A stretch of DNA of 64,000 nucleotides, from contig JBDRLW010000008.1 of NCBI GenBank assembly GCA_043812655.1, positions 3,198-67,197 of the forward strand, in the 5' to 3' direction. This DNA is from a bacterium (lineage in GTDB: Bacteria > Margulisbacteria > WOR-1 > O2-12-FULL-45-9 > XYB2-FULL-48-7). Below are positions 3,439 through 63,726 of the stretch, one piece after another (within the stretch, counting starts at the first letter, position 1; each line of letters starts with the position of its first letter). The notes below the pieces were generated by a model. It searched no databases. It was not told where the DNA came from and saw only the letters and a program-made list of their open reading frames with translations. The position numbers and the translations under genes were made by a program.

Positions 3439-4310
3439 TCTTCTTTTTATATTTCCTGCAATTTCTTTTTCGGTTGATTTTCTTACTGCCGCCAAAACTG
3501 GCTATTATTCTCATGAACCTAGCGGGCGAGGCCACTTATCAGATCGCTTGCCGGACCCCGATCAGAAAAACAGTTGCTAATAATTTTTCTTTGGTTTTCC
3601 CCAATATTAAGATAACCAATACAGATGTCTTGGCAAAAAAGACACTTCACAACATCGCCTACTCTATTTTTGAGCTCCTGTGCATGCCATTCTTAACCCC
3701 CTATCATGTTTCCCTCATCAGCCAAATAATTGGCCGGGAAAATATTGAGGCCGGATTAAAACACGGCAAAGGGGTTTTACTGCTCATGATGCATACCGGT
3801 AATTATGAGATCACTCCGGTCATTTTAACTTCGCAGGGATACAAGATTAACTCAATTTTAAAAGCCACCAATGACCCGATGTTCAAATTCCTTAACAAAA
3901 CTCGTGGCCATAAGGGGGCAAAGATAATTAATGTCCTGGAATCAAATATGTACAGCGAAGCCTTAAAAGTTCTAAAGCAAAATGAGATCGTCGGCTTGCT
4001 GATCGATACCGGCGCCCTTGAAGGCAGACATGAAATGCTCCCCTTTCTCGGAAGAAAAGTCCCAGTGGCGACCGGCTGGCTGACTTTAGCCGAAAGGTCT
4101 AAAGCCGCGGTTATTCCCGGCTACTCAAAACGCGAGGGAGAGAAACTTATCTATTATTTCAGCGAACCGCTCCAGGTCTCTCGTGATAACCGGGAAGCAA
4201 CGATCGAAAAAGTCCGCCAATTCTACGAAGAGCTTATCAAAAACAATCCTGAACAATGGGCGATCTTCTTGAATGAATATGAAGTCAAAAGGATGGTGGC
4301 AGGGAAATGA
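3435..4310 (+). CDS. Lipid A biosynthesis late acyltransferase (LpxL/LpxM-like LPLAT family)
   Basis: HTGNYE (HX4D/E acyltransferase motif) and an N-terminal TM helix. ATGA overlap with the msbA stop. Confidence 0.65.
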   Translation: MIFFLYFLQFLFRLIFLLPPKLAIILMNLAGEATYQIACRTPIRKTVANNFSLVFPNIKITNTDVLAKKTLHNIAYSIFELLCMPFLTPYHVSLISQIIGRENIEAGLKHGKGVLLLMMHTGNYEITPVILTSQGYKINSILKATNDPMFKFLNKTRGHKGAKIINVLESNMYSEALKVLKQNEIVGLLIDTGALEGRHEMLPFLGRKVPVATGWLTLAERSKAAVIPGYSKREGEKLIYYFSEPLQVSRDNREATIEKVRQFYEELIKNNPEQWAIFLNEYEVKRMVAGK

Positions 4311-5965
4311 ACCGTAAAAACATCTTAATATTAATCGCTATGGCAGTTTGTTTATACTTTTTCAAACTCGGCAGTTTCTCATTGTACGACGCGGCGGAGA
4401 CGACTTACGGCGAATTCGTTAAAAACATGCTGGGGATGAAAGATTGGCTGACATTCCATTACAACGGACAGATAATCTTTGATAAGCCCCCGCTCTATTA
4501 TTGGTTCGCGGTCATCTTTTCTAAGTTGATCGGGTTCAATGAATGGGCCATGCGCCTCCCTGCTGCTATCTCCGGGCTCCTAACCGTAATCGTCACCTAT
4601 CTCCTCGGAAAAACATTTTACAATAAACAGGTTGGATTCCTTTCCGGCATAATTGTGATGACCGCTTTCCAATTTCTCGTCCAATCGCGGATCGCGGAAT
4701 TAGATGTTGTCCTCACCCTCCTTATGACGTCGGCAATTCTCTGTTTCTACTTGGGTTACACCAGCGGGGAGAAAAAATATTATACGTTAAGCTATGTCCC
4801 TATGGCCCTAGCCGTTTTGATCAAAGGGATCCTTGGCGTTGCCCTCCCCGGCTGCGCGATCTTTCTTTTTCTGTTGATCAAAGGAGAATTAAAGATCCTA
4901 AAAGAGATGCGGATCCTCTCTGGGATCGTAATCATCACCTTGATCGGCCTCCCCTGGTACCTGGCAGAATATCTCATTCATGGTCAAGTTTTTCTTGATT
5001 TTGCCTTGGGTTTTCTTTTCCTTTCCCGGTTCCAAGGCGCGGTTTGCGGCCATACCGGCCCTTGGTATTATTATTTCCTCGCTTTAATTTTAGGTTTTGC
5101 TCCCTGGTCGCAATTCATTCCGTTCGCTTTCTGGCGAGCATATAAAGAAGTTTCTTCTCCCAACTCCCAACTCCGAACTCCAATGCTTCTTTCCCTTTGC
5201 TTTGTTATCCCCGCCTTTATCGTCTTTTCGGTCGCTAAAACCAAGATACCTAACTACATCCTCCCCCTTTATCCTTTTCTGGCCATCATGGTGGGGAAGT
5301 TGTGGGCTGAAGTTTTATCGGAGCCTGAGAATAAATTCTCGGCTCCTCAAGAAAGCAAAACAAGAATTAATTCTCGTTTTGATAAAAATGGAACCGCGAA
5401 TTTATTCGCAGGTTCCTACGGAATAACATTATCCAACATCCTTTTTGCCGTTGTCATCGCCCTAATTTTCATTGGTTGTATCATGATCGCTAATTCCAAT
5501 TATCCAACACAATATATATCCCTACTCCCTAGCCTCTACACCCTAGCGGCTATCTTAGTCCTTGGCGGCGTGATCTCAATTACCGCTTATTTTCTAAAGA
5601 AATATACTCTTTCTTTTGCCGCTATCCCAACAATGGTTTTTATCATCACTTTGATCTTGACTGTCTGGGCCCTGCCCGAAGTTGAAAACTTTAAGGGAGC
5701 TAAAGAACTGGGAAAAGAATTAAATATTGTTATTAAACCAAATCAAATTATCGCCGCTTACAATGTCGGCAATCGCCCGAGTGTTGTTCTTCACAGCCCA
5801 AAGCCAGTTAAGTTCTTGGAGACCGAAAAGGAATTATCCGTTTATATTAATCATAAAAAAGGTTACGTGTTTACATTGGTTGAAGAATATGAAAAAATGA
5901 AGGAAAGATTGCCAGCCAGGACCAAGGTTTTGGCTAAAAAAGGCGACCTTTTAATATTATATTAA
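4307..5965 (+). CDS. GT83/PMT_2 family membrane glycosyltransferase (ArnT-like), paralog 1
   Basis: Polytopic membrane protein with N-terminal YDAAETTYGEFV...DKPPLYYWF, as in ArnT / dolichyl-phosphate-mannose transferases. Carries two in-frame repeat inserts (5159-5188 and 5321-5418). Confidence 0.7.
   Translation: MNRKNILILIAMAVCLYFFKLGSFSLYDAAETTYGEFVKNMLGMKDWLTFHYNGQIIFDKPPLYYWFAVIFSKLIGFNEWAMRLPAAISGLLTVIVTYLLGKTFYNKQVGFLSGIIVMTAFQFLVQSRIAELDVVLTLLMTSAILCFYLGYTSGEKKYYTLSYVPMALAVLIKGILGVALPGCAIFLFLLIKGELKILKEMRILSGIVIITLIGLPWYLAEYLIHGQVFLDFALGFLFLSRFQGAVCGHTGPWYYYFLALILGFAPWSQFIPFAFWRAYKEVSSPNSQLRTPMLLSLCFVIPAFIVFSVAKTKIPNYILPLYPFLAIMVGKLWAEVLSEPENKFSAPQESKTRINSRFDKNGTANLFAGSYGITLSNILFAVVIALIFIGCIMIANSNYPTQYISLLPSLYTLAAILVLGGVISITAYFLKKYTLSFAAIPTMVFIITLILTVWALPEVENFKGAKELGKELNIVIKPNQIIAAYNVGNRPSVVLHSPKPVKFLETEKELSVYINHKKGYVFTLVEEYEKMKERLPARTKVLAKKGDLLILY
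5159..5188. repeat. R3 repeat (tcttctcccaactcc-naactcc-naactcc) in frame in GT83 paralog 1
   Basis: Encodes SSPNSQLRTP. Confidence 0.7.
5321..5418. repeat. R5 double-hairpin repeat in frame in GT83 paralog 1
   Basis: GGAGCCtGAGAATaaaTTCTCGGCTCC...GGAACCGCGAATttaTTCGCAGGTTCC encodes SEPENKFSAPQESKTRINSRFDKNGTANLFAGS. Confidence 0.7.
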
Positions 5966-5966
5966 T

Positions 5967-6683
5967 ATGAATAAATTAGATTTATCAGTTTCTATTCCGA
6001 CCTACAACGAAGCCAAGAACATTGAAACGATGATCATTCGTGTCCATGATGCTTTGCGCGCCCACGGGATAAATGAAGAGATCATTATTGTTGACGACAG
6101 CTCGCCCGATGGGACTGCAGCACTGGCCGAAAAAATGTCCAAAGATTATCCGGTTAGAGTTTATGTTAGGACCAAACGCGAAGGCCCCGGTCCCGCCATT
6201 ATGGATGGGATCAGACTGGCGCAAGCTCCGGTTTCCTGCACCATGGATGGAGACCTAAGCCACCCCCCCGAAGCGCTCCCTGAAATGTATAAGCTGATCA
6301 AATCAGGCCAAGCGCCCCTCGTTATCGGTAGCCGCCATGTTAAGGGAGGCGGCACTTCCAAGTGGATCTGGTATCGCAAATTTTTCTCCTGGGGAGCCCG
6401 GCAATTAGGTCGGCTGCTGACCCCGGTTCACGATTTAACCTCTGGATTTTTCATGTTCGACAAAAAGATCTTGCAAGGAGCAACGATCGATCCTATCGGT
6501 TGCAAAGTTGGACTTGAATTGATGGTCAAAGGGAAACACAAGGGCAAAGTCATCGAATATCCAATTATCTTCTCCGAACGGGCGGCCGGTGAAAGTAAAA
6601 TGGGTTGGCGTGAAACCAAACACTATCTTTACCATCTTGGCTCTCTCCTGCTTTGGAAAACGGCTAACATTTTCAAAAGATGA
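5967..6683 (+). CDS. GT2 polyprenyl-phosphate sugar transferase (ArnC/DPM1-like)
   Basis: GT-A fold, DxD (VDDSSPDG), about 238 aa. Classic partner that makes the lipid-linked donor for GT83 enzymes. Confidence 0.7.
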   Translation: MNKLDLSVSIPTYNEAKNIETMIIRVHDALRAHGINEEIIIVDDSSPDGTAALAEKMSKDYPVRVYVRTKREGPGPAIMDGIRLAQAPVSCTMDGDLSHPPEALPEMYKLIKSGQAPLVIGSRHVKGGGTSKWIWYRKFFSWGARQLGRLLTPVHDLTSGFFMFDKKILQGATIDPIGCKVGLELMVKGKHKGKVIEYPIIFSERAAGESKMGWRETKHYLYHLGSLLLWKTANIFKR

Positions 6684-8689
6684 TCGATCTTTCGGTTATT
6701 ATCGTCAATTATAATGGCGAGAAATATTTAAAGGACTGCCTCTCCTCGATCTATCAAAGTACCAAGAATATTAATTTCGAGATAATCTTTGTTGATAACC
6801 ACTCAGCCGATAATTCTGTCGACATTATTAAAACAAATTTCCCTAAAGTCATTATTATTGAAAACAAGAATAATCACGGGTTTTGCCGAGCTAATAACCA
6901 GGGTCTGAAGATATATCAAGGAAGATATGCCCTACTATTAAATAACGATACGATCGTAAAAGATGGCGCGCTAGACCAGCTGGTGCAGTTTATGGATAAC
7001 AATCCTGGCGCTGGGGCTTGCGGCCCCCTCCTCTCTAATCCCGATGGTTCACCACAACATCAAGGCGGAATATTTAATAAGAAGTTCTGGTTATCCTCTT
7101 CTCCAACTAAAGTCTCTTATGTCATCGGAGCGGCGCTAATGGTTAGGCGGGAAGTGGTTGATAAGGTCGGCGGGATGGACGAGAATTTCTTTTTTTCTAA
7201 TGATGACCTTGATTGGTGTTTGCGGATCAAAAAGGCCAGTCACGACGGGCAAGCCGGTTGGGATATTTATTTTGTTCCCCAGGCAAAAATAATGCATTAT
7301 GGCGGTTTTACGATCAATAAATTCAATCAAAAGTTATTTGTCGAAGGTTTCAGAGGCGGCCTCTATTTCTGCCGCAAACATTACGGCTTTTTAGCCTACC
7401 AATTGTATCGATCATTGCTGATCATAGGGATGATAATCGCTATTCCCCTTACTTTGATACTTTATCCATTTTTAAAACATAAAAAGAAATTAAATGCCTT
7501 TATTGAAATTTTGATGATTACCTTACAGCCCTCACCCCTGTCCCCTCTCCCAAAGGGAGAGGGGTGGAAAAACATTTTGTTAGTGAGCAACGGCCACGCG
7601 GAAGATCTAGCCGCTGCGGCAATTGGGGGAACACTGCAAACAGCAAGTCCAGATCTTTCTATTAGAGCCCTTCCTTTAGTCGGACTAGGGCAAGCCTATG
7701 ATAAAAAAGGAATAATAAATCTTGGCCTAAAGAAAATCTTACCCAGCGGTGGTTTTGCCAAAGAAGGGATATTCCATTTTTTAAATGATCTCCGCTCTGG
7801 CTTTTTTAGCCTCTTTCATCAACAGATCAAGATCCTGAGGCAAGAAGCTAAAAAAACTGATCTAGTCGTCGCTGTCGGAGACGTCTGGGTGGTGGCTTTA
7901 TGCGGCCTATTTGTTAAAAAACCTTTGATCTTCATCGATGGTCCAAAGTCAGTCAAGATCGAAGGTTATTATAAATTAGAACTTTGGCTGCTAAAGAAAT
8001 TCTGCCAAAAAGTTATCGTCCAAGACCCCGAAACAGCTGACTACTTACAGAAAAAAGGGATCCCCGCTTTTTATCTTGGTAGCTGGGTAATGGATTATGT
8101 CCCCGTCACTGGCGATAACCTTGGAATTGATCCGGGCAAAACAGTGATCGGGATTCTTCCGGGAACGCGTGAGGAAGCCTATCCTAACTTAAAATTGATC
8201 CTCGAAGTCTTTGAACTCTTGTCTCAATCTGACAAGAACCTGGTCGGAACGATTGCCTCTGTCTTAAATAAAGATAAAATTAAAATCCCTGGTTGGCAAT
8301 TAGAAGATAATAAACTAACTTCGAATTCTGGCGCTACGGCTTATCTTATCGAAGGCAAATTCGGCGATGTCTGTGTCCGCTCAAAACTTATCATCGGCTT
8401 GGCCGGGATCGCCAACGAACAAGCCGTCGCTTTTGGCAAACCAGTCGTCTGCTTCCCTGGTAGCGGAGCCCAAACGACTCTCCGCCGCTGGCAAGAAATC
8501 CACAAGATAACCAGCGATTCGATGCTGATTGTGCAAGGAAATACTGTAGAAAAAGCGGCCAAGATAATGAGATTATTGAAGGATGAAAAACGATTAGCAG
8601 TGATGGGAAAGATCGGAAAAGAGAGTAAACCAATGTGGGGCGGAGTTGAGAGGATCGCTAACCTGGTCAAAACTACTATCTCAAATTAA
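6680..8689 (+). CDS. Fused GT2 glycosyltransferase (N-terminal) plus GT19 LpxB-like domain (C-terminal); a repeat element lies at the junction
   Basis: N-terminal 250 aa are GT2-like (IIVNYNGEKYL, DNHSAD). C-terminal 380 aa are LpxB-like (LLVSNGHAEDLAAAAIGG, PGTREE). The R1 repeat at 7528-7568 encodes the linker QPSPLSPLPKGEGW. Confidence 0.55.
   Translation: MIDLSVIIVNYNGEKYLKDCLSSIYQSTKNINFEIIFVDNHSADNSVDIIKTNFPKVIIIENKNNHGFCRANNQGLKIYQGRYALLLNNDTIVKDGALDQLVQFMDNNPGAGACGPLLSNPDGSPQHQGGIFNKKFWLSSSPTKVSYVIGAALMVRREVVDKVGGMDENFFFSNDDLDWCLRIKKASHDGQAGWDIYFVPQAKIMHYGGFTINKFNQKLFVEGFRGGLYFCRKHYGFLAYQLYRSLLIIGMIIAIPLTLILYPFLKHKKKLNAFIEILMITLQPSPLSPLPKGEGWKNILLVSNGHAEDLAAAAIGGTLQTASPDLSIRALPLVGLGQAYDKKGIINLGLKKILPSGGFAKEGIFHFLNDLRSGFFSLFHQQIKILRQEAKKTDLVVAVGDVWVVALCGLFVKKPLIFIDGPKSVKIEGYYKLELWLLKKFCQKVIVQDPETADYLQKKGIPAFYLGSWVMDYVPVTGDNLGIDPGKTVIGILPGTREEAYPNLKLILEVFELLSQSDKNLVGTIASVLNKDKIKIPGWQLEDNKLTSNSGATAYLIEGKFGDVCVRSKLIIGLAGIANEQAVAFGKPVVCFPGSGAQTTLRRWQEIHKITSDSMLIVQGNTVEKAAKIMRLLKDEKRLAVMGKIGKESKPMWGGVERIANLVKTTISN
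7528..7568. repeat. R1 G-rich palindromic element copy (gccctcacccc...CCCTCTCCCaaaGGGAGAGGG) inside a CDS, in frame
   Basis: Seen directly. Shares box and hairpin motifs with eight other copies. Confidence 0.8.
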
Positions 8690-9658
8690 GCTTGCATAAA
8701 CCTCATCCACCGTTAAAAGATCCATGCAATTCGGCTTGATCTCACAGCTTTTCTGATAACAGACAGTACAGTCTATCTTTGGCATCAGTTTTTTCCCTAA
8801 GCCATATAACTCGATCTCCGCCGCCGATGTCGGGCCAAAAAAGACCACCATTTTTTTCTTTAAGGCGATCGCAAAATGCATCGCTAAACTATCGCTAGAA
8901 AGGATAGTCGAACATTGGTTGATAACTGAAGCAAAACCGCGAAGTGAATGGACTCCCGCATCAGTCATCCCGGTCGCTTTGGCTATTTCTTGGTTTCGTT
9001 CCCTTTCATCCTGCCCGCCAAGAATTATCGAATTTATCCCTTGCTCTTTTTTCAACCGGTTGACTAAATCGATCGTTTGCTTGGTCCCCCAGCTTTTCTG
9101 CGGCCAGCGCTTCCCTGCCCCAGTATTGATCCCATAAACATTTTTATCTCCAGCTAACCCTAATTTCTCAACGACTTTCTTGCCGTATTCAATTTCTTCT
9201 GCAGTTAAAGAAAAAACATAAGGAGAAACTTTTATCCCTAAAAGATCGGCCATATGTTGCTGATAGGTTTTCTGATTGATTCTTTTTAGCTTATTAGCTT
9301 TTTCTAAACCATATTGAGAGATGATCGACATATCAAACCAGCCCGAAGGAGTGTATGTAACCTTACCATCATCATAATAAGCGCCAATGATCTTTTTGGC
9401 TTTTAGGCTGGAGACAAATTGACAAACCTCCTGGCCGTCTTCGAGCCCAATAATAAGATCATAATCACCTAATTTAGATCGATCCTCCCAAGCACAAGCA
9501 TTATTCAGATGCGAATTGCCAGATAACAATTCTGTCGAGATCGTGGAGGTTAGCCAGTCTATTTGAGCCTCGGGATATTTTTCTTTTAGGCCGGATAAAA
9601 GTGAAGTGGTCCGCAAAACATCACCAATCGCCCCTAATTTAACAATAAGGATTTTCAT
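8681..9658 (-). CDS. ADP-heptose:LPS heptosyltransferase (GT9, WaaC/WaaF-like)
   Basis: MKILIVKLGAIGDVLRTT N-terminus typical of GT9 heptosyltransferases; about 325 aa. Confidence 0.7.
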   Translation of the reverse strand: MKILIVKLGAIGDVLRTTSLLSGLKEKYPEAQIDWLTSTISTELLSGNSHLNNACAWEDRSKLGDYDLIIGLEDGQEVCQFVSSLKAKKIIGAYYDDGKVTYTPSGWFDMSIISQYGLEKANKLKRINQKTYQQHMADLLGIKVSPYVFSLTAEEIEYGKKVVEKLGLAGDKNVYGINTGAGKRWPQKSWGTKQTIDLVNRLKKEQGINSIILGGQDERERNQEIAKATGMTDAGVHSLRGFASVINQCSTILSSDSLAMHFAIALKKKMVVFFGPTSAAEIELYGLGKKLMPKIDCTVCYQKSCEIKPNCMDLLTVDEVYASLI

Positions 9659-16998: not shown

Positions 16999-18537
16999 AT
17001 GAACATTTGGCTATTGTTAGCAATTACAACTTTGTTACGGCTCTGTCTGGCGTCGCTTTTCCCTATCACCGCCGATGAATCATACTATTGGCTCTGGTCA
17101 AAGCATTTAAGCCTTTCTTATGTCGATCATCCGCCAATGGTGGCGGTCGTTAATTGGCTTTTCACCCACGGGACAGAAAACCTGATCATGCTCCGTCTGG
17201 GGACGGCAATAATTTCATTTTTGGTTAGCCTGCTCATCTATTTCCTAGCGAAAGAAGTTTTCAATGAAAAAGTCGCTTTCTGGTCGGTGGTCCTGTTCCA
17301 AATCCTTCCCCACTTCGTCGTCATCTGGTTGACGCAATTTGTCGAACTCCCGCTCGCTTTATTCTGGACTTTATCATTATTGATTCTGGCAAAAATATTC
17401 AATTTTTCCCATCCATCTTCTCCGAACCCCCAAATCCGAACTCCTAACTTATTATGGCTCGCGCTCGGCCTCACCATCGGCCTGGGTTCCCTTAGCAAAT
17501 ACACCATGTTCCTCTTCTGGCCGTGTCTTGGATTATTCTTTATTCTCTCTCCCGAAAACCGTTTCTGGCTTAAGCGAAAAGAACTTTACCTATGCCTTCT
17601 CCTAAGCCTATGCTTTTTTTCTCCAGTATTGATTTGGAATAACAACCATGCCTGGGCATCGTTTCTCTTCCATGGCAGTAAAGCTAGTGGAGATGCGTGG
17701 GGAACAAATTTTCTCCCCTTTGTTGGCGATCAATTAGTACACTTTACGCCTTTCCTTATTTTTACTCTTTTTGCTGTCGCTAAATCCTTCTTTCCAACTA
17801 ACAAACTAATGGCTCGACAAGCCCTTCGGCAAGCTCAGGGCAACATCGAGCGGAGTCGAGATGCTCGCCATCCCAGCCATCCCGAGCTCCGTCGAGGGAC
17901 AAACCAACAAACCAACCAACTCCCCCTCCTCCTCGCCTCGTTCTCCTTCCCCATCCTCTGCCTTTTCCTTTTCCTAAGCCTTAAGGTCAAGGTCTGGGCC
18001 CACTGGCCGGAGATCGGTTATATTGCGGCCATTCCCTTAACAATTAATTACTTAATTGAAAAGAATAAATCATTAAATAAATTCATTACTTGGATTGCAG
18101 GCTTCACCGGTTTAGTTCTAATTATTCTATTTTGGGTCACGCCAGCCATTCTCTTACATCAGAAAGATTACCTGGCTAATTATCAATTAACCAATTCAAT
18201 CCCCAAAGAGTATAAGCTCTTTGCCAAAACCAATGTCTCTTCGTCTCTCCTTGAGTTTTATACCAAGCGACCGGTTTATATGGCCACCGGTTTTTTAAAA
18301 GAGAACCATCTCTGGGGCGAAAAACAGTATGAACTCTGGGGAATTCCCAATTTAGTTAAAGGGGAAACTGTCATATATTATGGTGATGATACCCCTTTCT
18401 TTCAAGAAAAAGCCAAAACTAATTTCAGAAGCATTACAGAATTACCGGTTAAATTGTATTTAATTGAGGATTATATTACTAATAATTATAAGATGTTTAA
18501 ACTAGAAGGTTATAAAAGATCCGCTTCTCACCCTTAG
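16999..18537 (+). CDS. GT83/PMT_2 family membrane glycosyltransferase (ArnT-like), paralog 5
   Basis: ADESYYWLWSKHLSLSYVDHPPM motif. Carries in-frame repeat inserts R3 (17417-17448) and R4 (17803-17915). Confidence 0.65.
   Translation: MNIWLLLAITTLLRLCLASLFPITADESYYWLWSKHLSLSYVDHPPMVAVVNWLFTHGTENLIMLRLGTAIISFLVSLLIYFLAKEVFNEKVAFWSVVLFQILPHFVVIWLTQFVELPLALFWTLSLLILAKIFNFSHPSSPNPQIRTPNLLWLALGLTIGLGSLSKYTMFLFWPCLGLFFILSPENRFWLKRKELYLCLLLSLCFFSPVLIWNNNHAWASFLFHGSKASGDAWGTNFLPFVGDQLVHFTPFLIFTLFAVAKSFFPTNKLMARQALRQAQGNIERSRDARHPSHPELRRGTNQQTNQLPLLLASFSFPILCLFLFLSLKVKVWAHWPEIGYIAAIPLTINYLIEKNKSLNKFITWIAGFTGLVLIILFWVTPAILLHQKDYLANYQLTNSIPKEYKLFAKTNVSSSLLEFYTKRPVYMATGFLKENHLWGEKQYELWGIPNLVKGETVIYYGDDTPFFQEKAKTNFRSITELPVKLYLIEDYITNNYKMFKLEGYKRSASHP
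17417..17448. repeat. R3 repeat in frame in GT83 paralog 5
   Basis: tcttctccgaacccccaaatccgaactcctaac encodes SSPNPQIRTPN. Confidence 0.7.
17803..17915. repeat. R4 repeat (long form, about 110 bp) in frame in GT83 paralog 5
   Basis: aacaaactaATGGCTCGACAAGC...TCGCCATCCCAGCCATCCCGAGCTCCGTCGAGGGAcaaaccaacaaacc with a 41-bp internal segment absent from the other copy. Confidence 0.75.
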
Positions 18538-18543
18538 CTTTTT

Positions 18544-18672
18544 GCCCTCATCCGCTGGCGCTAAAGACTCCCCCTTCTCCCATAGGGAGAAGGGAACACA
18601 GCAAGACTAGACGTGCAAATTACCCTCTCCCTTTGGGAGAGGGGGAAAGGTTAACGTTGGCTGGGTGAGGGC
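18544..18672. repeat. R1 composite MITE-like element between convergent genes
   Basis: gccctcatccgctggcgc box, two CCYTCTCCC-NNN-GGGAGARGG hairpins, terminal gggtgagggc. Confidence 0.8.
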
Positions 18673-18679
18673 TAAAGGC

Positions 18680-19588
18680 TTAAATATTCCCGGTATAAAC
18701 GTATTTCAATCCGGCTTCCAACCCAATCTCCTTGGCCTTAATAACGGTTTCCCTCGGAGTTGCCGGCCGGTCAAGCATTTTATAAGTGGGGTAAAAAGCC
18801 GAAACGTGCCAAGGAACATCATCGCCAAGATCGTTCTTAATAAAGCTGGCAATTTCCGTTAATTCTTCATTTGAATCATTCAAACCGGGAATAATCAAAG
18901 TCGTCAGCTCGATCCAGATCTTAAGATTCCTCATTAATTTAATCGTGTCTAAAACCGGCTGCAGTCGCCCACCACAATATTTTTTATAGTAATCGTCACT
19001 GAACGACTTCAGATCAATATTCGCCGCGTCAAGATATGGAGCGATCATTTTAGTCGGTTCCGGATTAGAATAGCCATTGGTCACAAAAATATTTTTCAGG
19101 CCCTTCGCGTTAGCAAGTTTAGCGCAATCATAGGCAAATTCAAAAAATATTGTCGGTTCGGTATAAGTATAGGAGATGCTCTGGCAATCGTTATCAATCG
19201 CTGCCTTAACAATTTCTTCCGGCGTTGTCTCTATGCCGCCAATTCCCCCCTCATCCCATCGTCCCCTCGTCTCATCGTCCTTTCGTCCTTTCGTTGCTTT
19301 CGAGATCCCAAAGTTTTGGCAGAAATCACAGCGGAAATTACAACCAACCGTTGCAATTGAATATGACCTTGTTCCCGGCAAAAAATGGTTGAGGGGCTTC
19401 TTCTCGATCGGATCAATAGCGGCTGAAATAACTTTACCGTAAACTAAGCTGTATAAAACACCCTTTTGGTTTTCCCTAACCCCACAAATCCCTCGTTTCC
19501 CATCAGCAATCAAACAATTATGCGGACAAAGTAAACACTGGACCCTGGACTCTGGACCCTGGACCCTATAAAAAAGTGCTTCCCTCAT
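18680..19588 (-). CDS. AmmeMemoRadiSam-system radical SAM enzyme (AmrS-like)
   Basis: VQCLLCPHNC N-terminal Cys cluster plus GCNFRCDFCQN radical SAM motif. Contains two in-frame inserts: R2 at the N-terminus and a 20-aa low-complexity insert. Confidence 0.7.
   Translation of the reverse strand: MREALFYRVQGPESRVQCLLCPHNCLIADGKRGICGVRENQKGVLYSLVYGKVISAAIDPIEKKPLNHFLPGTRSYSIATVGCNFRCDFCQNFGISKATKGRKDDETRGRWDEGGIGGIETTPEEIVKAAIDNDCQSISYTYTEPTIFFEFAYDCAKLANAKGLKNIFVTNGYSNPEPTKMIAPYLDAANIDLKSFSDDYYKKYCGGRLQPVLDTIKLMRNLKIWIELTTLIIPGLNDSNEELTEIASFIKNDLGDDVPWHVSAFYPTYKMLDRPATPRETVIKAKEIGLEAGLKYVYTGNI
19539..19568. repeat. R2 repeat (CTGGACCCTGGAnyCTGGACCCTGG) in frame in the AmrS N-terminus
   Basis: Encodes YRVQGPESRVQ, directly before the conserved CLLCPHNC. 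Confidence 0.7.
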
Positions 19589-24179: not shown

Positions 24180-24223
24180 CCACCCCCTCTCCCCCTGGGA
24201 GAGGGGGCCTGGGGGTGAGGGCT
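24180..24223. repeat. R1 element copy upstream of the TPP riboswitch
   Basis: ccctctccccctgggagaggggg hairpin plus a gggggtgagggc box. Confidence 0.75.
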
Positions 24224-24255
24224 GTGATTGCCTCCTTATGTTATAATAAATTGTA

Positions 24256-25629
24256 ATGAAAAAACTTATAATCATATTCTCACTCATTTTTCTTAGCCTG
24301 CCGGCTTTTGCCACGTTTGAATCGGAGGTAATGCAACAATTATGGGACGTCCCAACCAAGGAAGTGAGATCAGAGATCATCAAATCCTACAAAAGAGGTC
24401 CGATCCAAGTAAATGAGATCTACTATTTTAGCCGCTCTTACAAACGCCAGCCGGTTAAGATATTTGGTTACTATTCTTATCCTGTTAATCATAAAGGTAA
24501 ACTCCCAGCCATTCTCCTCTCCCATGGTGGCGGCGGTTCAGCTAGCCTCCCCCGCTGCTTAGCTTGGTCAAAATTAGGTTATGCTGTTTTAGCGATCGAC
24601 TTGCCAGGTAAGGGTGAAAATCGAGGACGGTCACGCTCCACCGGACCAGACATGATAGTAAAGAACCTGCTCAAGACCCAGCCTGATCCTAGCTACAATT
24701 ATCTAATTCACGCGGTGGCTGCGGCCAGAAATGGGATAACTTTTTTAGCGACCAGAAAAGAAGTTGATCCGGACCGGATCGGGATGATCGGCCTTTCCTG
24801 GGGAGGGGTCCTCACCCTATTAACCAATGGCCAAGATAATCGATTAAAAGCCGCGGTCAATGTTTTTGGCGCCGGCCACATTCCCGAAGGCTGCACCTGG
24901 GATGATTGGTTTAAGTCAATGCCAGCGGTTGACAAGAATATTTGGCAGAACAATCTTGACCCGAAGAATTTCCTGGCCACCCAACATGCTCCGATCTATT
25001 TTGTCTCTGGGACCAATGATCATTGTTATTACTTAACTACTTTCCAAAAGAGCTACCAAGAAGTAACTGCCGATAAGAATTATTATTTGGTCCCCAATCT
25101 GCGCCATAAATTCCTGGATTCCCTTAGCGTCCCCGCGCTGGCTTGGTTAAAGTCAAAATTAAAGACCGGAGGAAGTTTCCCCGGGATCACCGTCATGCCG
25201 ATCACCCAAGAAGCGGATAATATCGTGGTTAATGCTAGATCTAACGGCAATAAAGTCACTCTTTACTATTCGGTTGGCGGTCCGTCCGGTTTAACAACTA
25301 ACCGTTGGAAATCGCTTCAGCCAAAAAGGACCGGACTTTATTATTCTTTTACCATCCCGACAAAATTAATTAAGCCGGAGGTCATGTATTACGTCAGCGC
25401 AAATAATAAGGACGGGGCGGCTACCTCTTCACAAGTCCAAACTATTTTCAGTGTTAAATTAAAAGACGGGACCAAAACCTACGCTCAATCATCGCCGATC
25501 AAGAAGCTGTACCAGCACGAACCACCATTCACCTTTGTTAATGGCTATGTTAGCAGCACCATCCGCTTCCTGTTCGCAAAACAGGAACAGGTCTACAAAG
25601 CCTACAATTACGATTCTATTGCGAACTAA
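24256..25629 (+). CDS. Secreted alpha/beta hydrolase (acetyl-xylan-esterase / dienelactone-hydrolase-like) with a C-terminal beta-sandwich domain
   Basis: Signal peptide MKKLIIIFSLIFLSLPAFA, HGGGGSAS oxyanion region, nucleophile elbow GLSWGG. Confidence 0.55.
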   Translation: MKKLIIIFSLIFLSLPAFATFESEVMQQLWDVPTKEVRSEIIKSYKRGPIQVNEIYYFSRSYKRQPVKIFGYYSYPVNHKGKLPAILLSHGGGGSASLPRCLAWSKLGYAVLAIDLPGKGENRGRSRSTGPDMIVKNLLKTQPDPSYNYLIHAVAAARNGITFLATRKEVDPDRIGMIGLSWGGVLTLLTNGQDNRLKAAVNVFGAGHIPEGCTWDDWFKSMPAVDKNIWQNNLDPKNFLATQHAPIYFVSGTNDHCYYLTTFQKSYQEVTADKNYYLVPNLRHKFLDSLSVPALAWLKSKLKTGGSFPGITVMPITQEADNIVVNARSNGNKVTLYYSVGGPSGLTTNRWKSLQPKRTGLYYSFTIPTKLIKPEVMYYVSANNKDGAATSSQVQTIFSVKLKDGTKTYAQSSPIKKLYQHEPPFTFVNGYVSSTIRFLFAKQEQVYKAYNYDSIAN

Positions 25630-26521
25630 ATGGCTCTTTTTTTTTAAAATCCGGCAGATAAGCGTCACTGCTTGACAAGTGCTGGATATATATATTTTGA
25701 AACCCTTTGTCCTGGGCGTGATCGACAACTTTCTCATATTCAGCCGCCGTTAATTTTCGAGCTAACTCGGGAAATTCCTTCGCCCGGTGCTGCGGACTAT
25801 ACTGCGACATCAAGCTCAACCAAATCTCAGTTGAAATACCGGCCAAAAAATCCAAGACCTTAAAGCTATCAGCAATATTATTCGGTAAAACAAGGTGTCT
25901 CACTATCAACGCTCTTCTCCCAACTCCACACTCCCGACTCCTAACTACCTGCCCCCACATCTCCCTCACCCCAACCGTTACCGTCTCAACATAATTCTCT
26001 GCCCCAGAATATTTAAACGCGTTATCATTATCAAAATATTTAATATCCGGGAGGTAAATATCAACCAGGCCGTCAAGCCTTTGCAAAAGCTCCAGCGAAT
26101 CATAACCCCCGGTATTGTAGACGATCGGCAACTCCAACCCTTCTTTTTTGGCTAGCATCAAGGCGTCTATGACCTGTGCGCCATAATGCGTTGGTGAAAC
26201 CAGGTTTATATTTTCCGCTCCCCTGTCAGCCAGATCAAGCATTATTTTAACCAGCTCATTAATCGTCACCTCGCGGCCAAGTCCTTGCTGGCTAACTTGA
26301 TAATTCTGGCAATAAACGCATTTAAGCGAACAACCGGAAAAAAAGACCGTCCCCGACCCTCTTTGGCCAGAAATTTGCGGTTCTTCACCATGATGAAGAC
26401 AATAAGAGGCAACTTTAATCTTATCACCTGCCCCGCACTTTCCCCCAAACTGACTAACAAACTTACCAACTCCCCTCTCTACCCCGCACCGATGGCCGCA
26501 TAAATTGCATTTAGTCACCAT
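25616..26521 (-). CDS. Radical SAM protein, PflX family (pyruvate-formate-lyase-activase homologue)
   Basis: CNLCGHRCGV N-terminal cluster plus CSLKCVYCQN radical SAM motif. Carries an in-frame R3 repeat insert (25913-25945). Confidence 0.6.
   Translation of the reverse strand: MVTKCNLCGHRCGVERGVGKFVSQFGGKCGAGDKIKVASYCLHHGEEPQISGQRGSGTVFFSGCSLKCVYCQNYQVSQQGLGREVTINELVKIMLDLADRGAENINLVSPTHYGAQVIDALMLAKKEGLELPIVYNTGGYDSLELLQRLDGLVDIYLPDIKYFDNDNAFKYSGAENYVETVTVGVREMWGQVVRSRECGVGRRALIVRHLVLPNNIADSFKVLDFLAGISTEIWLSLMSQYSPQHRAKEFPELARKLTAAEYEKVVDHAQDKGFQNIYIQHLSSSDAYLPDFKKKEPFSSQ
25913..25945. repeat. R3 repeat in frame (opposite orientation) in the PflX-like radical SAM gene
   Basis: tcttctcccaactccacactcccgactcctaac, translated on the minus strand as VRSRECGVGRRA. 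Confidence 0.7.
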
Positions 26522-27663: not shown

Positions 27664-27762
27664 CCTCTCCCCGTCACTCACTTCGTTCGTGCCACCCCTC
27701 TCCATGAAATGGAGAGGGGAATGAATTCTCCGATGAAATCGGAGAAGAAAGGGGTGAGGGTG
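27664..27762. mobile_element. R1 MITE-like element (97 bp) with terminal inverted repeats
   Basis: ctccccgtcactcacttcgttcgtgccaCCCCTCTCCatgaaatGGAGAGGGGaatgaattctccgatgaaatcggagaagaaaGGGGTGAGGG. About 90% identical to the intragenic copy at 47989-48081. Confidence 0.75.
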
Positions 27763-27960: not shown

Positions 27961-27967
27961 GATTTAG

Positions 27968-28124
27968 ACCCTCACCCGCTAATGCTTAAGACTCCCCCCT
28001 CTCCCATAGGGAGAGGGTAACTCGCTTGTTTTATGTTTTATTTTTATACCCCCTCTACCTCCCTGCCTGCCGGCAGGCAGGTGGGAGAGGGGGTGCTATT
28101 GTTTGGCGTTGACGGGGGTGAGGG
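27968..28124. mobile_element. R1 composite element containing a nested R6 palindrome
   Basis: Runs accctcaccc...cccctctcccatagggagaggg...cctgcctgccggcaggcagg...gggggtgagggc, with TIR-like ends. Confidence 0.75.
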
Positions 28125-46313: not shown

Positions 46314-47039
46314 TTATTGTAGGCCGAATATTTCGGGCAGGGTCCGTTTGTGTTCGCTAGCAGCTTGACGTTTTCTTATTAGTTCGATCTTATCTTTGGC
46401 AATCCCTTTGTCATTACCGGAAAGGAACTGGTCGAGTTCATCGTAAGTGATCCCCATCTCACTTTCATCTGTCTGCCCTGCCCAAAGACCGGCGCTCGGC
46501 GCTTTATCAATAATTTCTTTTGTGACGCCTAATTCTTGAGCCAAAGCCCTCACGTCTTTCTTTAAAAGATTCCCTAACGGCAAAAGGTCAACTCCCCCAT
46601 CGCCATATTTCGTAAAATAGCCCATTTCCAGTTCCGACCTGTTCCCCGTCCCGATCACTAAATAATTTAGTTGGCTGGCAAAATAATAAAGGGTCGTCAT
46701 CCGCAGTCTTGGTTTAATGTTGGCGATACTTAGGTCTTTCTGACCGCTATATGGCTTGCCTTCAAAGACACCAAACAATGAGTCAAATGAAGTAGACAGG
46801 TCAATCTCTTTGATTTTCAGATCAATTCGTTGCGCAAATTCTTTGGCATGATCAATATCGACCGCTAAACTGTGGCAAGGAAGAATTAACGCTAAAGTAT
46901 TTTGAGGAAAAACTTTTTTGCAAAGGAGCGCCACCACCGCAGAGTCAATTCCGCCGGAAAGTCCTAAAATACAACCTTTGGCTCCGGCTGCCTCAACCTT
47001 TTGTTTGATCCAATTAGAAATTTTTTCTGATCTATTCAT
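46314..47039 (-). CDS. nadE: NH3-dependent NAD+ synthetase
   Basis: GLSGGIDSAVV PP-loop, 241 aa. Confidence 0.85.
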   Translation of the reverse strand: MNRSEKISNWIKQKVEAAGAKGCILGLSGGIDSAVVALLCKKVFPQNTLALILPCHSLAVDIDHAKEFAQRIDLKIKEIDLSTSFDSLFGVFEGKPYSGQKDLSIANIKPRLRMTTLYYFASQLNYLVIGTGNRSELEMGYFTKYGDGGVDLLPLGNLLKKDVRALAQELGVTKEIIDKAPSAGLWAGQTDESEMGITYDELDQFLSGNDKGIAKDKIELIRKRQAASEHKRTLPEIFGLQ

Positions 47040-48451
47040 TGTAGTAAATTATGGATCGCCTTGGCCGCCCGTTTGCCGTCGCCCATGGCGGAGATAACGG
47101 TCGCGGCGCCGCGGACAATGTCGCCTCCGGCGTAAACCGCGGGGATCGAGGTCGCACCCTCCGGAGTAATGACCACGCCTCCCCACTTTTCGGTTTTGAG
47201 ATTTGGGGTACGCATCGGGACAAGCGGATTAGGAGAATTACCGATCGCCACGATCACTGTGCCAATTTGCAGTTTGAAGTTTGAGTTTGGAATCTCGACC
47301 GGCCTCCGTCGGCCGCTAGCATCGGGTTCGCCTAATTCCATCCGCAAACATTCCGCTTCAGCCACCCACCCATCACTATTAGGCAAATACTTGACCGGCA
47401 AAGTTAAATTCTTAAAAATTATCCCCTCTTCTTCCGCCCGTTTTACCTCTTCGATCCTGGCCGGCATCTCTGCCTGGGTCCGCCTATATATAATGTAAAC
47501 TTCTTTGGCCCCCAAGCGAAGAGATACCCTGGCCGCGTCCATCGCCACGTTGCCGCCGCCAACAACCGCGACTTTTTCACCGACTTTGACCGGCGTTAAA
47601 TATTCGGGGAACTTATAGGCCTTCATCATGTTGACCCGAAAAAGATATTCATTAGCGGAGTAAACCCCCTGGAGATTCTCGCCGGGAATATTCATGAATT
47701 TTGGCAAGCCGGCACCCGAGCCGATAAACACTGCTTGATAATTTTTTAACAATTCTTCGATCGTTAAGACATTACCGATCAGCATGTCAGTTTCAACTTT
47801 AACCCCAAGTGTTTTAACATATTCAACTTCAAGATTCACGATCTCTTTGGGCAAACGGAATTGCGGGATCCCGTATGTCAAAACGCCGCCCGTTACGTGA
47901 AGCGATTCAAAGATCGTCACTTGATACCCTAACCTAGCTAGATCGCCAGCGCACGTTAACCCCGCCGGCCCCGACCCGATTACTGCAACCCTCACCCCGT
48001 CACTCACTTCGTTCGTGCCACCCCTCTCCACTTTGTGGAGAGGGGAATGAATTCCGACGAAGTCGGAAGAAAGGGGTGAGGCCTTGTCCGCCACAAACCT
48101 CTCTAGGCTCCCGATCGCGATCGGCTCGCCCTTAACGCCCAACACACACTTTGCCTCGCATTGTTCTTCTTGGGGACAAACTCTACCGCAAACAGCGGGG
48201 AGAGCATTGGTCTCTTTAATTTTTTTCGCCGCTCCGGCAAAATCTCCTTGGGCCGCTAATTTTAGAAATCCGGGAATATCGACTTCGACTGGACAGCCGC
48301 TAACGCAAAGCGGTTTCTTGCATTGGATGCATCTTTTAGCTTCAGCGATCGCTTGTTCTACGGTAAAGCCTTGCGGCACTTCCTCAAAATCACGGATCCG
48401 CTCCGCTACCCCCCGCTCCGCCATATGTTGTCTTTTTGGTTTTTCAATCAT
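47036..48451 (-). CDS. GltD-like NADPH oxidoreductase beta subunit (NfnB/SudA-type)
   Basis: N-terminal Fe-S Cys motifs and two Rossmann GxGxxG folds. Paired with an NfnA/PyrK-like gene. Contains a 93-bp in-frame R1 insert. Confidence 0.7.
   Translation of the reverse strand: MIEKPKRQHMAERGVAERIRDFEEVPQGFTVEQAIAEAKRCIQCKKPLCVSGCPVEVDIPGFLKLAAQGDFAGAAKKIKETNALPAVCGRVCPQEEQCEAKCVLGVKGEPIAIGSLERFVADKASPLSSDFVGIHSPLHKVERGGTNEVSDGVRVAVIGSGPAGLTCAGDLARLGYQVTIFESLHVTGGVLTYGIPQFRLPKEIVNLEVEYVKTLGVKVETDMLIGNVLTIEELLKNYQAVFIGSGAGLPKFMNIPGENLQGVYSANEYLFRVNMMKAYKFPEYLTPVKVGEKVAVVGGGNVAMDAARVSLRLGAKEVYIIYRRTQAEMPARIEEVKRAEEEGIIFKNLTLPVKYLPNSDGWVAEAECLRMELGEPDASGRRRPVEIPNSNFKLQIGTVIVAIGNSPNPLVPMRTPNLKTEKWGGVVITPEGATSIPAVYAGGDIVRGAATVISAMGDGKRAAKAIHNLLQ
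47989..48081. mobile_element. R1 MITE-like element (93 bp) inserted in frame within the nfnB/gltD-like CDS
   Basis: CCTCACCCC...GGGGTGAGG terminal inverted repeats. Encodes an extra KASPLSSDFVGIHSPLHKVERGGTNEVSDGV just before the conserved VAVIGSGPAG. Confidence 0.8.
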
Positions 48452-48465
48452 TTTACTTTTTTATA

Positions 48466-48591
48466 CCCTCACCCAGTACCGCTGAACCTTTCCCCCTCTC
48501 CCAAAGGGAGAGGGTAATTCCCTTTTCCTCTCCGCGTTTTACCTTCTCCCTCTGGGAGAAGGGGGCGTCTTTTGCGCCAGCGGATGAGGGC
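48466..48591. repeat. R1 composite element in the nfnA-nfnB intergenic space
   Basis: accctcaccc box, ccctctcccaaagggagaggg and ccttctccctctgggagaaggggg hairpins, gcgccagcggatgagggc box (reverse complement of the box at 18544). Confidence 0.8.
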
Positions 48592-59599: not shown

Positions 59600-59643
59600 A
59601 ATGGCCAGCAAAAGAAAGGAGGAGAAGTTTGTTGGTTCGATAG

Positions 59644-61008
<1,365 letters not shown>

Positions 61009-61046
61009 TTGGTTAGTCAGTTAGTCTGATAGTTTGTTAGAAAAAA

Positions 61047-61097: not shown

Positions 61098-61736
61098 TTA
61101 GAAGAACGCCATCCTGGCTCCAGCGGCTAGGATAAAGCCATCGAGCGGCAATGAATTACCGCTGCTATCCTTAATGCTGGTCCGCAAATAATTGATCTGG
61201 GCAAAAGCTCCGGTATCTGGGCCAAGGCCAAATTCGATCCCTGTCCCGATCTGGGCGCCAAATCCGGCAAAACTTGAAGGGGAATTAAGTTTAACTTCGC
61301 TGGATTTATTGGCTGTATAGTAGTTGGCTTCGGCATCCAAATAAAGATTGGCGATACCATGGGCGCTGGAATCCCCCCAACTAAGAACATACATTCTAGC
61401 TCCATAGCCAAACCTTAAAATTGAATAAGTCGCGTTAAGCGTGGTCCCCTGGTCATTATTAAATGACGATAGGCCAAATCTAGGTCCAGTATCTAAGTTC
61501 TGGTTTAATCTAGCGTCGAACTCAAGCCCAAGATCATACGCTGTAGTTTTTGTCGCCAAAACATCCCTGTTGGGAGAGATCATACTTAACCTTACCCCCA
61601 ATCTATAGGACTTTTTCTGAGACATCGCCAATAGATCTTTCGTTGAAACCGTGCTTGTCCCTTCGATCGCGTAAGCCGGAACTATCGCCGCTAAACTTAA
61701 AACAAAAACCGCCAACAAAGTAAGGACCTTTTTCAT
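61098..61736 (-). CDS. Small outer-membrane beta-barrel protein (OmpW/OmpA-like), tandem paralog 1
   Basis: Signal peptide and C-terminal ...ARMAFF aromatic terminus. About 50% identical to the neighbouring paralog. Confidence 0.5.
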   Translation of the reverse strand: MKKVLTLLAVFVLSLAAIVPAYAIEGTSTVSTKDLLAMSQKKSYRLGVRLSMISPNRDVLATKTTAYDLGLEFDARLNQNLDTGPRFGLSSFNNDQGTTLNATYSILRFGYGARMYVLSWGDSSAHGIANLYLDAEANYYTANKSSEVKLNSPSSFAGFGAQIGTGIEFGLGPDTGAFAQINYLRTSIKDSSGNSLPLDGFILAAGARMAFF

Positions 61737-61802: not shown

Positions 61803-62456
61803 TTAGAAAAAGGCCATCCTGCTGCCAACCGTCAAAACTAAGCCGTCAAGAGGCAAAGTATGACTGCTTATGTCGTTTATGCTGGTGCGCAAATAATCGA
61901 TCTGGGCAAAAGCTCCGGTATTCGGCCCGAAAGTAAACTCAAGCCCCACCCCCGCTTGAACCCCAAGCCCGGCAAAACTGGCAGGGGAAATAGCCAGCGC
62001 GGTTGAGTCTTTGATCTTATTAGCGGCAAAATAATTAACTTCCCCGGCAAAATAGAGGTTAGCAAACCCATGAAGACTGGAATGGTCGCTCCAGTTAATA
62101 GCATAAAGCTTGGCGCCATAACCAAACCTGATGATCTGATATGAAGCATTTAGCGTTGTTCCCTGGTCATTGACACAAGAGGCAATACCAAACCGCGGGC
62201 CGGTATCAAGATTTTCATTGAACTTAAAATCAAATGCAAGCCCAATGTCATAAGCAGGGATCTTGGTCGCCAATATATCGCTAGCCGGAGAGATCATGCT
62301 GACTTTAACCCCTAATCCAAGATTTTTTCTTTGGGCTAATGTTAATAATTCTTTTGTTGAAACTGTAGTTGTCCCTTCAAGCGCATAAACAGGGACAAGA
62401 CTTATTCCTCCTAAAATAAAAATAGTAAGGGAACACAACCAAAAATACTTTCTCAT
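61803..62456 (-). CDS. Small outer-membrane beta-barrel protein, tandem paralog 2
   Basis: Signal peptide and C-terminal ...SRMAFF. Paralogous to 61098-61736. Confidence 0.5.
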   Translation of the reverse strand: MRKYFWLCSLTIFILGGISLVPVYALEGTTTVSTKELLTLAQRKNLGLGVKVSMISPASDILATKIPAYDIGLAFDFKFNENLDTGPRFGIASCVNDQGTTLNASYQIIRFGYGAKLYAINWSDHSSLHGFANLYFAGEVNYFAANKIKDSTALAISPASFAGLGVQAGVGLEFTFGPNTGAFAQIDYLRTSINDISSHTLPLDGLVLTVGSRMAFF

Positions 62457-63670: not shown

Positions 63671-63726
63671 GCCCTCACCCCGTCCGCCTACGGCGGACTG
63701 CCCCTCTCCCATAGGGAGAGGGGCGG
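63671..63726. repeat. R1 element copy
   Basis: gccctcaccccgtccgcctacggcggactgcccctctcccatagggagaggggcgg. Confidence 0.75.

Follow-up and report, generated by a model that had tools for sequence, protein, structure and literature searches.

In the 64,000-nt stretch of contig JBDRLW010000008.1 analyzed here (referred to as the window), a 669-aa open reading frame (ORF) joins two glycosyltransferase modules, and a copy of a GC-rich palindromic repeat, designated R1, is translated in frame within the linker between them. Probably, R1 is an element resembling the repetitive extragenic palindromic (REP) sequences, which settled in the unstructured tether of an already existing fusion and is translated there as a tolerated passenger. 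An earlier sequence-only reading had proposed that insertion of the repeat fused two adjacent genes. Since 12 distinct orthologous loci are fused without any repeat, the fusion does not depend on the repeat, and the proposal can apply to the lineage of the window only.

An R1 repeat in the linker of a GT2-TIGR03492 protein

The ORF is composed of the following parts, which include modules of glycosyltransferase family 2 (GT2) and of family TIGR03492:

6680..8689, + strand: 669-aa ORF with GT2 module, membrane helices, R1-encoded tether and TIGR03492 GT-B module
6689..7324, + strand: GT2 (GT-A) catalytic domain, aa 4–215 (Pfam PF00535, E 8.4e-28; PF13641; PF13632)
7328..7525, + strand: helical/transmembrane region, aa 217–282, with the hydrophobic stretch LLIIGMIIAIPLTLILYPFL (helices in the AlphaFold model; conserved in fused and split relatives)
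7525..7567, + strand: R1 copy of the short-spacer form, consisting of ACAG, the box CCCTCACCCC (7529–7538), TGT and the perfect 10-bp palindrome CCCCTCTCCC-AAA-GGGAGAGGGG (7542–7564)
7577..8674, + strand: TIGR03492 “lipid-A-disaccharide synthase-related” GT-B domain, aa 300–665 (NCBIfam profile; Foldseek)

The order of a GT2 domain, membrane helices and an LpxB-like GT-B domain, which had been recognized before, was confirmed by Pfam, AlphaFold and NCBIfam. The GT2 module, for which Pfam delimits aa 5–215, belongs to its family according to PF00535 (97.8 bits at aa 5–163; gathering score 23.3). It is followed by long helices modelled at aa 217–260 and 269–282, a coil at aa 283–297 with pLDDT values (AlphaFold's per-residue confidence) below 50 at positions 289–293, and the strand 298–303 (ILLVSN), with which the confidently modelled GT-B domain begins. 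The C-terminal half belongs to TIGR03492, scoring 228.5 bits in the context of the whole ORF and 231.3 bits when addressed alone (curated cut-off 219.2), and its homologs in the databases bear this name too. Its previous assignment to GT19 was not supported: the lpxB model TIGR00215 reached 22.7–24.1 bits at a curated cut-off of 190.25, and the LpxB model of Pfam, PF02684, reached 20.8–22.5 bits at a cut-off of 22.6, covering aa 437–590 only. When the C-terminal model was compared with the Protein Data Bank by Foldseek, UDP-GlcNAc 2-epimerases came out on top, followed by PglA, while LpxB ranked at position 23. The C-terminal half is related to LpxB and has a GT-B fold, but is not demonstrably a member of GT19; “LpxB-like” is a fair label. 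The GT2-TIGR03492 protein is predicted to be made as one membrane-anchored chain carrying two enzymes. A literature search for TIGR03492 returned no reports.

The R1 copy lies exactly in the connector of the two halves, as had been noticed before, and is read in frame as LQPSPLSPLPKGEGW (aa 282–296), i.e. between the membrane helices of the GT2 module and the GT-B module. In the AlphaFold model this peptide is the coil with the dip in pLDDT that separates helix 269–282 from strand 298–303. The copy has 68% GC as compared to 42.5% for the gene, and five of its six frames are free of stop codons. The RNA was calculated to fold locally with -29.7 kcal/mol at the repeat, and the hairpin at the junction with -22 to -30 kcal/mol. 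The junction alone has a folding z of -4.9, as compared to values around 0 for the repeat-free junctions of relatives. The linker comprises 16 aa versus 12–13 aa in the fusions that lack a repeat, and the AAAGGAG motif (codons “KGE”) of the relatives' linkers is gone. A scan of positions 6000–9000 for promoters and terminators detected no promoter-like site at the repeat and no terminator-like sites.

These features suggest a scenario, in which a short-spacer copy of R1, a REP-like, non-autonomous palindromic repeat family of this Saganbacteria/Margulisiibacteriota genome, would have landed in an unstructured tether of ~12 residues and replaced most of it. The tether would have led from the last membrane helix of the GT2 module to the first β-strand of the TIGR03492 GT-B module. 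The net change in length would have preserved the reading frame, and a copy lacking stops in nearly all frames would be translated. The resulting peptide, rich in Pro, Ser and Gly (QPSPLSPLPKGEGW), would provide a flexible linker of near-original length and would be tolerated. The copy would thus owe its persistence to the absence of stops, the preserved frame and the flexibility of the encoded peptide, and its insertion would have been neutral. Fusion of this gene pair is common in the lineage and would most likely be older than the repeat.

R1 is a repeat family of the window. Its 23-nt palindrome core recurs at eight further sites with at most three mismatches, compared to none in 100 shuffles, and a looser pattern finds 10 copies in the 64 kb, where none is expected by chance. 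The unit consists of a box (A/G)CCCTCACCC, a spacer of 3–25 nt and a GC-rich palindrome of 9–10 bp; aligned copies start with the box and finish with GGGAGAGGG(G/T). Eight of the 10 copies are intergenic and two reside within genes. Two pairs form inverted doublets (18539–18682 and 48460–48591), while the copy in the 669-aa ORF is a singleton. The latter forms a short-spacer subtype together with the copy at 24183–24225, each beginning with ACAGCCCTCACCCC. The other copies are:

18539..18603, + strand: R1, long spacer, intergenic, left half of an inverted doublet
18615..18682, - strand: R1, intergenic, right half of this doublet
24183..24225, - strand: R1, short-spacer form, intergenic
27664..27728, - strand: variant R1b, CCCTCTCC-N7-GGAGAGGG, intergenic
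27963..28027, + strand: R1, intergenic
47986..48084, + strand: full R1b hairpin CCCTCACCCC...GGGGTGAGG, in frame in the NfnB/GltD-like gene 47036..48451 (- strand)
48460..48524, + strand: R1, intergenic, left half of a doublet
48536..48591, - strand: R1, intergenic, right half of this doublet
63671..63724, + strand: R1, intergenic

No Rfam family reached its gathering score anywhere in the window, and no literature on repeats of Saganbacteria was found. R1-like sequences are also present in related contigs, i.e. at positions 1218–1260 of locus L012, where the copy lies between two GT2 genes (GT2a and GT2b) and 10 nt before the start of GT2b, and as full hairpins with both CCCTCACCC/GGGTGAGGG arms at L029 1250–1360 and L037 410–510. 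Therefore, the R1 family is common to this bacterial group. From its copy number and its reversed orientation in the related locus L001 we infer that R1 is a non-autonomous element akin to REPs and their doublets (REPINs), which is or was mobile. The presumed driver is a Y1 transposase, of the IS200 type or of the type of the REP-associated tyrosine transposases (RAYTs), that would be encoded outside the window.

The junction in relatives and its repeated occupation by mobile DNA

As relatives, 45 loci were gathered, among which 28 close ones extend upstream of the TIGR03492 gene. Homologs of the C-terminal half with 56–70% identity derive from Saganbacteria (WOR-1) and Margulisiibacteriota. 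A GT2 ortholog (57–68% identity) directly precedes the TIGR03492 gene in all 28 close loci, usually in the gene order PMT_2 - GT2a - GT2b - TIGR03492. All more distant loci found (identity of 43% or less) lack an adjacent GT2 gene; two of them, L036 and L044, were found with a partial gene only. The repeat-free fusions amount to 12 distinct loci (L003, L004/L012, L005, L006, L014, L016, L018, L019, L020, L024, L028, L029) and have ordinary linkers such as LSGEIIPKYPTSKKT-ILLVSNG. They are single-chain orthologs without the repeat, which, according to the sequence-only reading, would speak against its own proposal. Judged by these loci, the GT2-TIGR03492 architecture does not generally stem from the repeat, whichever of the two events came first.

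Two separate adjacent genes, which had also been anticipated for relatives, are indeed present in nine distinct split loci (L007, L013, L008/L015, L009/L027, L010/L022, L011/L025, L017, L023, L026). With the exception of L011/L025, the GT2 stop codon in these loci overlaps or closely follows the downstream ATG or GTG, and AAAGGAG, read as “KGE” codons, is found ~10–20 nt upstream of the downstream start. By its sequence, this is the layout of classic translational coupling. Fused and split loci differ by a few bases only, i.e. by small frame-changing indels, and both states recur across the clade. In L007-L010, L013, L017, L023 and L026 the Shine-Dalgarno-like AAAGGAG used by TIGR03492 forms part of “KGE/KGA” codons at the GT2 3' end. 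It is kept as plain coding sequence in the fused L014 and L029, whereas only GGAG is left in L006. Its retention in fused loci testifies to small indels that have fused and parted the two genes repeatedly. The downstream proteins of split relatives begin 2–6 codons before ILLVSNG and hence downstream of the site occupied by R1. MITLQ, previously considered as an internal start just upstream of the repeat, was rejected as such: its Met lies within the conserved helix ILMI(A/T)L and is not preceded by a Shine-Dalgarno-like sequence.

Mobile DNA at the GT2/TIGR03492 junction was found in three lineages only. In the window, R1 has its box on the 5' side. The second case is L001 (P0019), which is fused and carries R1 in reversed orientation, CCCCTCTCCC-TAT-GGGAGAGGGG-AATAAAA-GGGGTGAGGGC, translated as SPLPMGEGNKRGEG; the folding z of this junction is -6.9. 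The third is L002 (P0001), the nearest relative of the window with 70% identity in the C-domain. Here the pair is split at positions 1993–2517 by the gene of a 126-aa Y1 transposase, which is accompanied on each side by two hairpins of R2. R2 is GGAACCGCGAATTTATTCGCAGGTTC-like at this junction and represents a palindrome family distinct from R1. The transposase matches Y1_Tnp of Pfam (PF01797, E 5e-21) and scores above the cut-off of the IS200/IS605 family NF033573 of NCBIfam (74.3 bits; cut-off 55), while it remains below the cut-off of the RAYT model NF047646 (48.5 bits; cut-off 80). R2 provides the stop codon of GT2 (TGA) and possibly a new downstream ATG (MEPRIYSQV-LLVSNG). In all three lineages the element has replaced rather than lengthened the ancestral linker: the window and L001 have lost AAAGGAG/“KGE”, and LLVSNG of L002 directly adjoins the right-hand R2. 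Very unlike sequences are thus accommodated at this junction among the relatives.

Because the window would have introduced ascertainment bias, it was left out when the frequency of such events was estimated for 23 distinct close loci comprising 151 kb, with the insertion sequence of L002 counted once. Four repeat or insertion-sequence events were present, two of which fall within the junction ±20 nt, which makes up 1.1% of the sequence. Because two events contrast with 0.044 expected (Poisson P ~1e-3), the junction is either targeted preferentially or exceptionally permissive. A conserved hairpin serving as target, for instance one sequestering the Shine-Dalgarno sequence, was considered and rejected, since z values of 21 clean junctions scatter around 0 (-2.2 to +1.3) as compared to -4.9 and -6.9 for the two junctions with R1. 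Likewise rejected was a single ancestral R1 insertion common to the window and L001: the two copies have opposite orientations, and L001 groups with L018, L020, L029 and L026 at 99–100%, excluding the window.

Order of fusion and repeat insertion

Three neighbor joining trees were built, based on the C-domain, on GT2 plus C-domain and on a concatenation of four proteins (1,471 columns), the last with bootstrapping and Fitch parsimony. The trees are star-like and their deep nodes unsupported. In the best four-protein tree, the window pairs with L002 (50% bootstrap), and the pair is placed beside a clade of nine taxa that are all fused (support below 40%). The smallest four-protein distance from the window is that to L002 (0.37), followed by the fused loci L004, L006, L003, L005 and L028 (0.40–0.43). 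The indel signature of the window in a variable region, KIKIPG----WQLED---NKLTS, is shared only with L003, L018, L019 and L020, which are fused. Taken together, the fusion is probably the older of the two events in the window.

Several observations weigh against a tolerated latecomer in a pre-existing fusion. At the node of the window, Fitch parsimony with two proteins (300 replicates) returned split 168 times, ambiguous 107 times and fused 25 times, and with four proteins (200 bootstraps) 83, 90 and 27 times, respectively. This lean toward split or ambiguous states arises because the long branch of the window attaches near the center of the tree, where split lineages dominate. Both junctions carrying R1 are fused, and no R1 was seen in a split junction. 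No homolog above 70% identity was present in the databases searched, and hence no empty-site allele. Finally, tblastn with the L002 protein detected no RAYT or other Y1 transposase in the window, and mobility of R1 is deduced from its copy number and the opposite orientation in L001. The earlier state of the window junction appears ambiguous because R1 overwrote the informative bases and the tree is star-like.

Alternatively, the repeat could have generated a new fusion in this lineage only, in that R1 overwrote the Shine-Dalgarno-start-stop cassette of two coupled genes and joined their frames, and did so independently in L001. In the ancestor, the stop of GT2 would then have overlapped the start of TIGR03492, whose Shine-Dalgarno sequence AAAGGAG would have resided within the 3' end of GT2. 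We consider this possible, if somewhat unlikely. R1 replaces exactly the segment in which split relatives have their Shine-Dalgarno sequence, start and stop, the Fitch counts given above favor split over fused at the node of the window, and an R1 insertion in a split junction would survive only if the frames became fused. Moreover, L001, the other fusion bearing R1, is sister (91%) to a clade of seven stand-alone genes; however, its next outgroup (L018, L020, L029) is fused, and parsimony is tied there. The lack of an adjacent GT2 gene in distant relatives makes split the likely deep ancestral state. The 12 clean fusions show that a repeat is unnecessary, and this alternative requires one more independent fusion than the passenger scenario. 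Furthermore, the window and L002 are placed beside the all-fused clade, and kinship with fused loci is indicated by the shortest distances and by the indel signature in common. A reading that goes further takes the coupled GT2/TIGR03492 junction as a preferred landing site, at which palindromic mobile elements drive fusion as well as fission: R1 would have welded the genes twice independently, in the window and in L001, and the IS200-type element together with R2 would have parted the pair, or prevented its joining, in L002. As a joint claim this is unlikely; the excess of events at the junction is compatible with a preferred and with a permissive site alike.

It is very improbable that the repeat has acquired a function, either with the GGGAGAGGGG arm as internal Shine-Dalgarno sequence for an in-frame TTG (7577) or GTG (7583), in which case a separate TIGR03492 protein would be made additionally, or with the 10-bp GC hairpin pausing ribosomes past the membrane helices in support of membrane insertion. 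Split relatives do start the downstream protein shortly before ILLVSNG by means of AAAGGAG, and purine-rich AAAGGGAGAGGGG is located 12–14 nt upstream of the in-frame TTG/GTG, but this spacing exceeds that of typical Shine-Dalgarno sequences, the motif is tied up in the stem of the hairpin and an ATG is lacking. The hairpin is strong and the junction enriched for such elements, but R1 also occurs at nine other sites that lack this context, the reversed orientation in L001 leaves no common sequence-specific role evident, and no promoter- or terminator-like site was found at the repeat. Finally, an assembly or sequencing error at the GC-rich palindrome might have wrongly joined two ORFs, as palindromic repeats are classic sites of assembly collapse and the source is, judging by its relatives, probably a metagenome-assembled genome. 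This is hardly credible: the independent assembly of L001 has the same kind of in-frame R1 junction, both flanks align codon by codon with orthologs, the linker length is conserved and repeat-free fused orthologs are common.

Further in-frame repeats and comparison with known systems

In total, seven repeat copies of three families are in frame in five genes of the window, i.e. in four genes besides the 669-aa ORF. The R1b hairpin at 47986–48084 is located in an NfnB/GltD-like oxidoreductase (47036..48451, - strand; E 4e-158 to 4YLF_B), within the segment connecting the Fe-S domain with the FAD-binding Rossmann domain and directly before VAVIGSGPAG. In NfnB of T. maritima (4YLF_B), the equivalent connector is shorter and unrelated in sequence. 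R2, the palindrome family that flanks the transposase gene at the L002 junction, also occurs in the window, here without a transposase:

5320..5416, + strand: R2 palindrome doublet (5320–5346 and 5390–5416), in frame in the PMT_2 gene 4307..5965

This doublet of the 27-mer GGAACCGCGAATTTATTCGCAGGTTCC constitutes a 26-aa insertion in a PMT_2/ArnT-like glycosyltransferase as compared to its L003 ortholog. The third family, D6, is a 29-nt repeat (TCTTCTCCCAACTCCCAACTCCGAACTCC), whose copies are 86–90% identical and reside in frame in three ORFs (5153–5181, 17416–17444 and 25913–25941). It is read as SSPNSQLRTP in PMT_2, at the place of a 6-aa insertion as compared to L003, as SSPNPQIRTP in ORF 16999..18537, and from the other strand as RSRECGVGRR in ORF 25616..26521. 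In-frame R1-like palindromes are also present in distant TIGR03492 homologs with 29–32% identity, namely at L037 3475–3520 (identical to L038 941–986) and L041 1820–1875, as CCCTCGCCCTCTGGGAGAGGG-N7-GGGTGAGGG and a longer variant. Lying before GFLPGTR, in the linker of the two Rossmann-like halves, they take the place of a similarly long segment. Wherever the position could be assessed, the in-frame copies map to linkers or loops, three of them immediately ahead of a Rossmann-like domain's first strand, and several keep the length of the linker roughly conserved.

Palindromic repeats that colonize genes in frame have been described above all for Rickettsia and, sporadically, for REPs. Such colonization is now seen in a Saganbacteria-like genome; as a kind, in-frame linker repeats resembling REPs or Rickettsia palindromic elements (RPEs) were known already. 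RPEs occur in frame in Rickettsia ORFs (PMC10969869), and REPs inside coding regions are thought to be neutral when they occupy flexible linkers or loops (PMC3733652). As with RPEs, palindromic repeats of the window are translated within proteins that are normal otherwise, at sites where the fold can accommodate them. In-frame insertions were found in ORFs 6680..8689 and 47036..48451 (- strand) and, in case of R2, in 4307..5965, with orthologs intact on both sides. Also as with RPEs, several unrelated genes of one genome are affected, i.e. those for GT2-TIGR03492, PMT_2 and the NfnB-like protein, as well as 16999..18537 and 25616..26521 by D6. However, RPEs have a length of ~100–150 nt, and their host Rickettsia is an obligate intracellular alphaproteobacterium (PMC10969869, PMC3733652), whereas the repeats of the window are shorter (~40–100 nt), of a sequence called unrelated, and hosted by an uncultivated Saganbacteria-like lineage. 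Moreover, R1 replaces a linker of similar length, while an RPE adds a new surface module. R1 thus works like an RPE, but membership in one of the RPE families is implausible given its length of ~40 nt and the host lineage.

R1 resembles REPs and REPINs in being a short, GC-rich imperfect palindrome, which is present in many, mostly extragenic copies and forms inverted doublets. The two large REP superfamilies have the tetranucleotide tag GTAG or CGTC at one end (PMC3733652); neither tag was found at either end of the aligned R1 copies. R1 differs further in the extra conserved box CCCTCACCC at variable distance from the palindrome. A cognate RAYT was not found within the 64-kb window, and the Y1 gene of L002 is flanked by R2 rather than R1. 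IS200/IS605 elements and their miniature derivatives with palindromes are called to mind by the Y1 transposase with R2 hairpins at the very same junction in L002 and by the transposase-less R2 copies of the window. In contrast, no transposase is linked to R1, and the L002 protein also draws a score, below the cut-off, from the RAYT model, which makes its assignment to a class tentative. Finally, fused and split GT2/TIGR03492 loci, differing by few bases around overlapping stop and start codons, conform to fusion and fission by frameshifting indels, but this route is untraceable in the window, where the repeat overwrote the informative bases.

For annotation it follows that PSPLSPLPKGEG and similar peptides of these genomes represent translated repeats rather than domain features, and that finding a repeat where two domains meet is no sufficient explanation for their fusion. 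What stands out is that one 35-nt junction was hit by three different mobile-element events in three lineages, with the native linker being replaced each time. If this reflected targeting rather than tolerance, the junction would be a natural system to learn how repeats remodel gene boundaries. If, moreover, the elements drove fusion and fission at a preferred landing site, REP-like repeats would be a direct mechanism of change in domain architecture and not mere passengers.

The 669-aa ORF is neighbored by genes for PMT_2/ArnT-like GT-C enzymes, a DPM1-like GT2 and a GT9 heptosyltransferase. Because of these neighbors, the GT2-TIGR03492 chain is probably involved in synthesis of envelope glycoconjugates. 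Elsewhere in the window, a repeat of ~80–110 nt (AACTAACAAACTAATGGCTCGACAAGCTCGCCATCCCAGCCATCCCGAGCTCCGTCGAGGGAC...) occurs twice with 93–94% identity (17796–17904 and 46108–46185), and AC-rich tracts of the ACTAACAAACTA type are found at 20128–20168, 59626–59652 and 61006–61045. Two adjacent ORFs of ~215 aa each, 61098..61736 and 61803..62456 (- strand), share a 192-nt stretch with 72% identity (D1) and are probably tandem paralogs.

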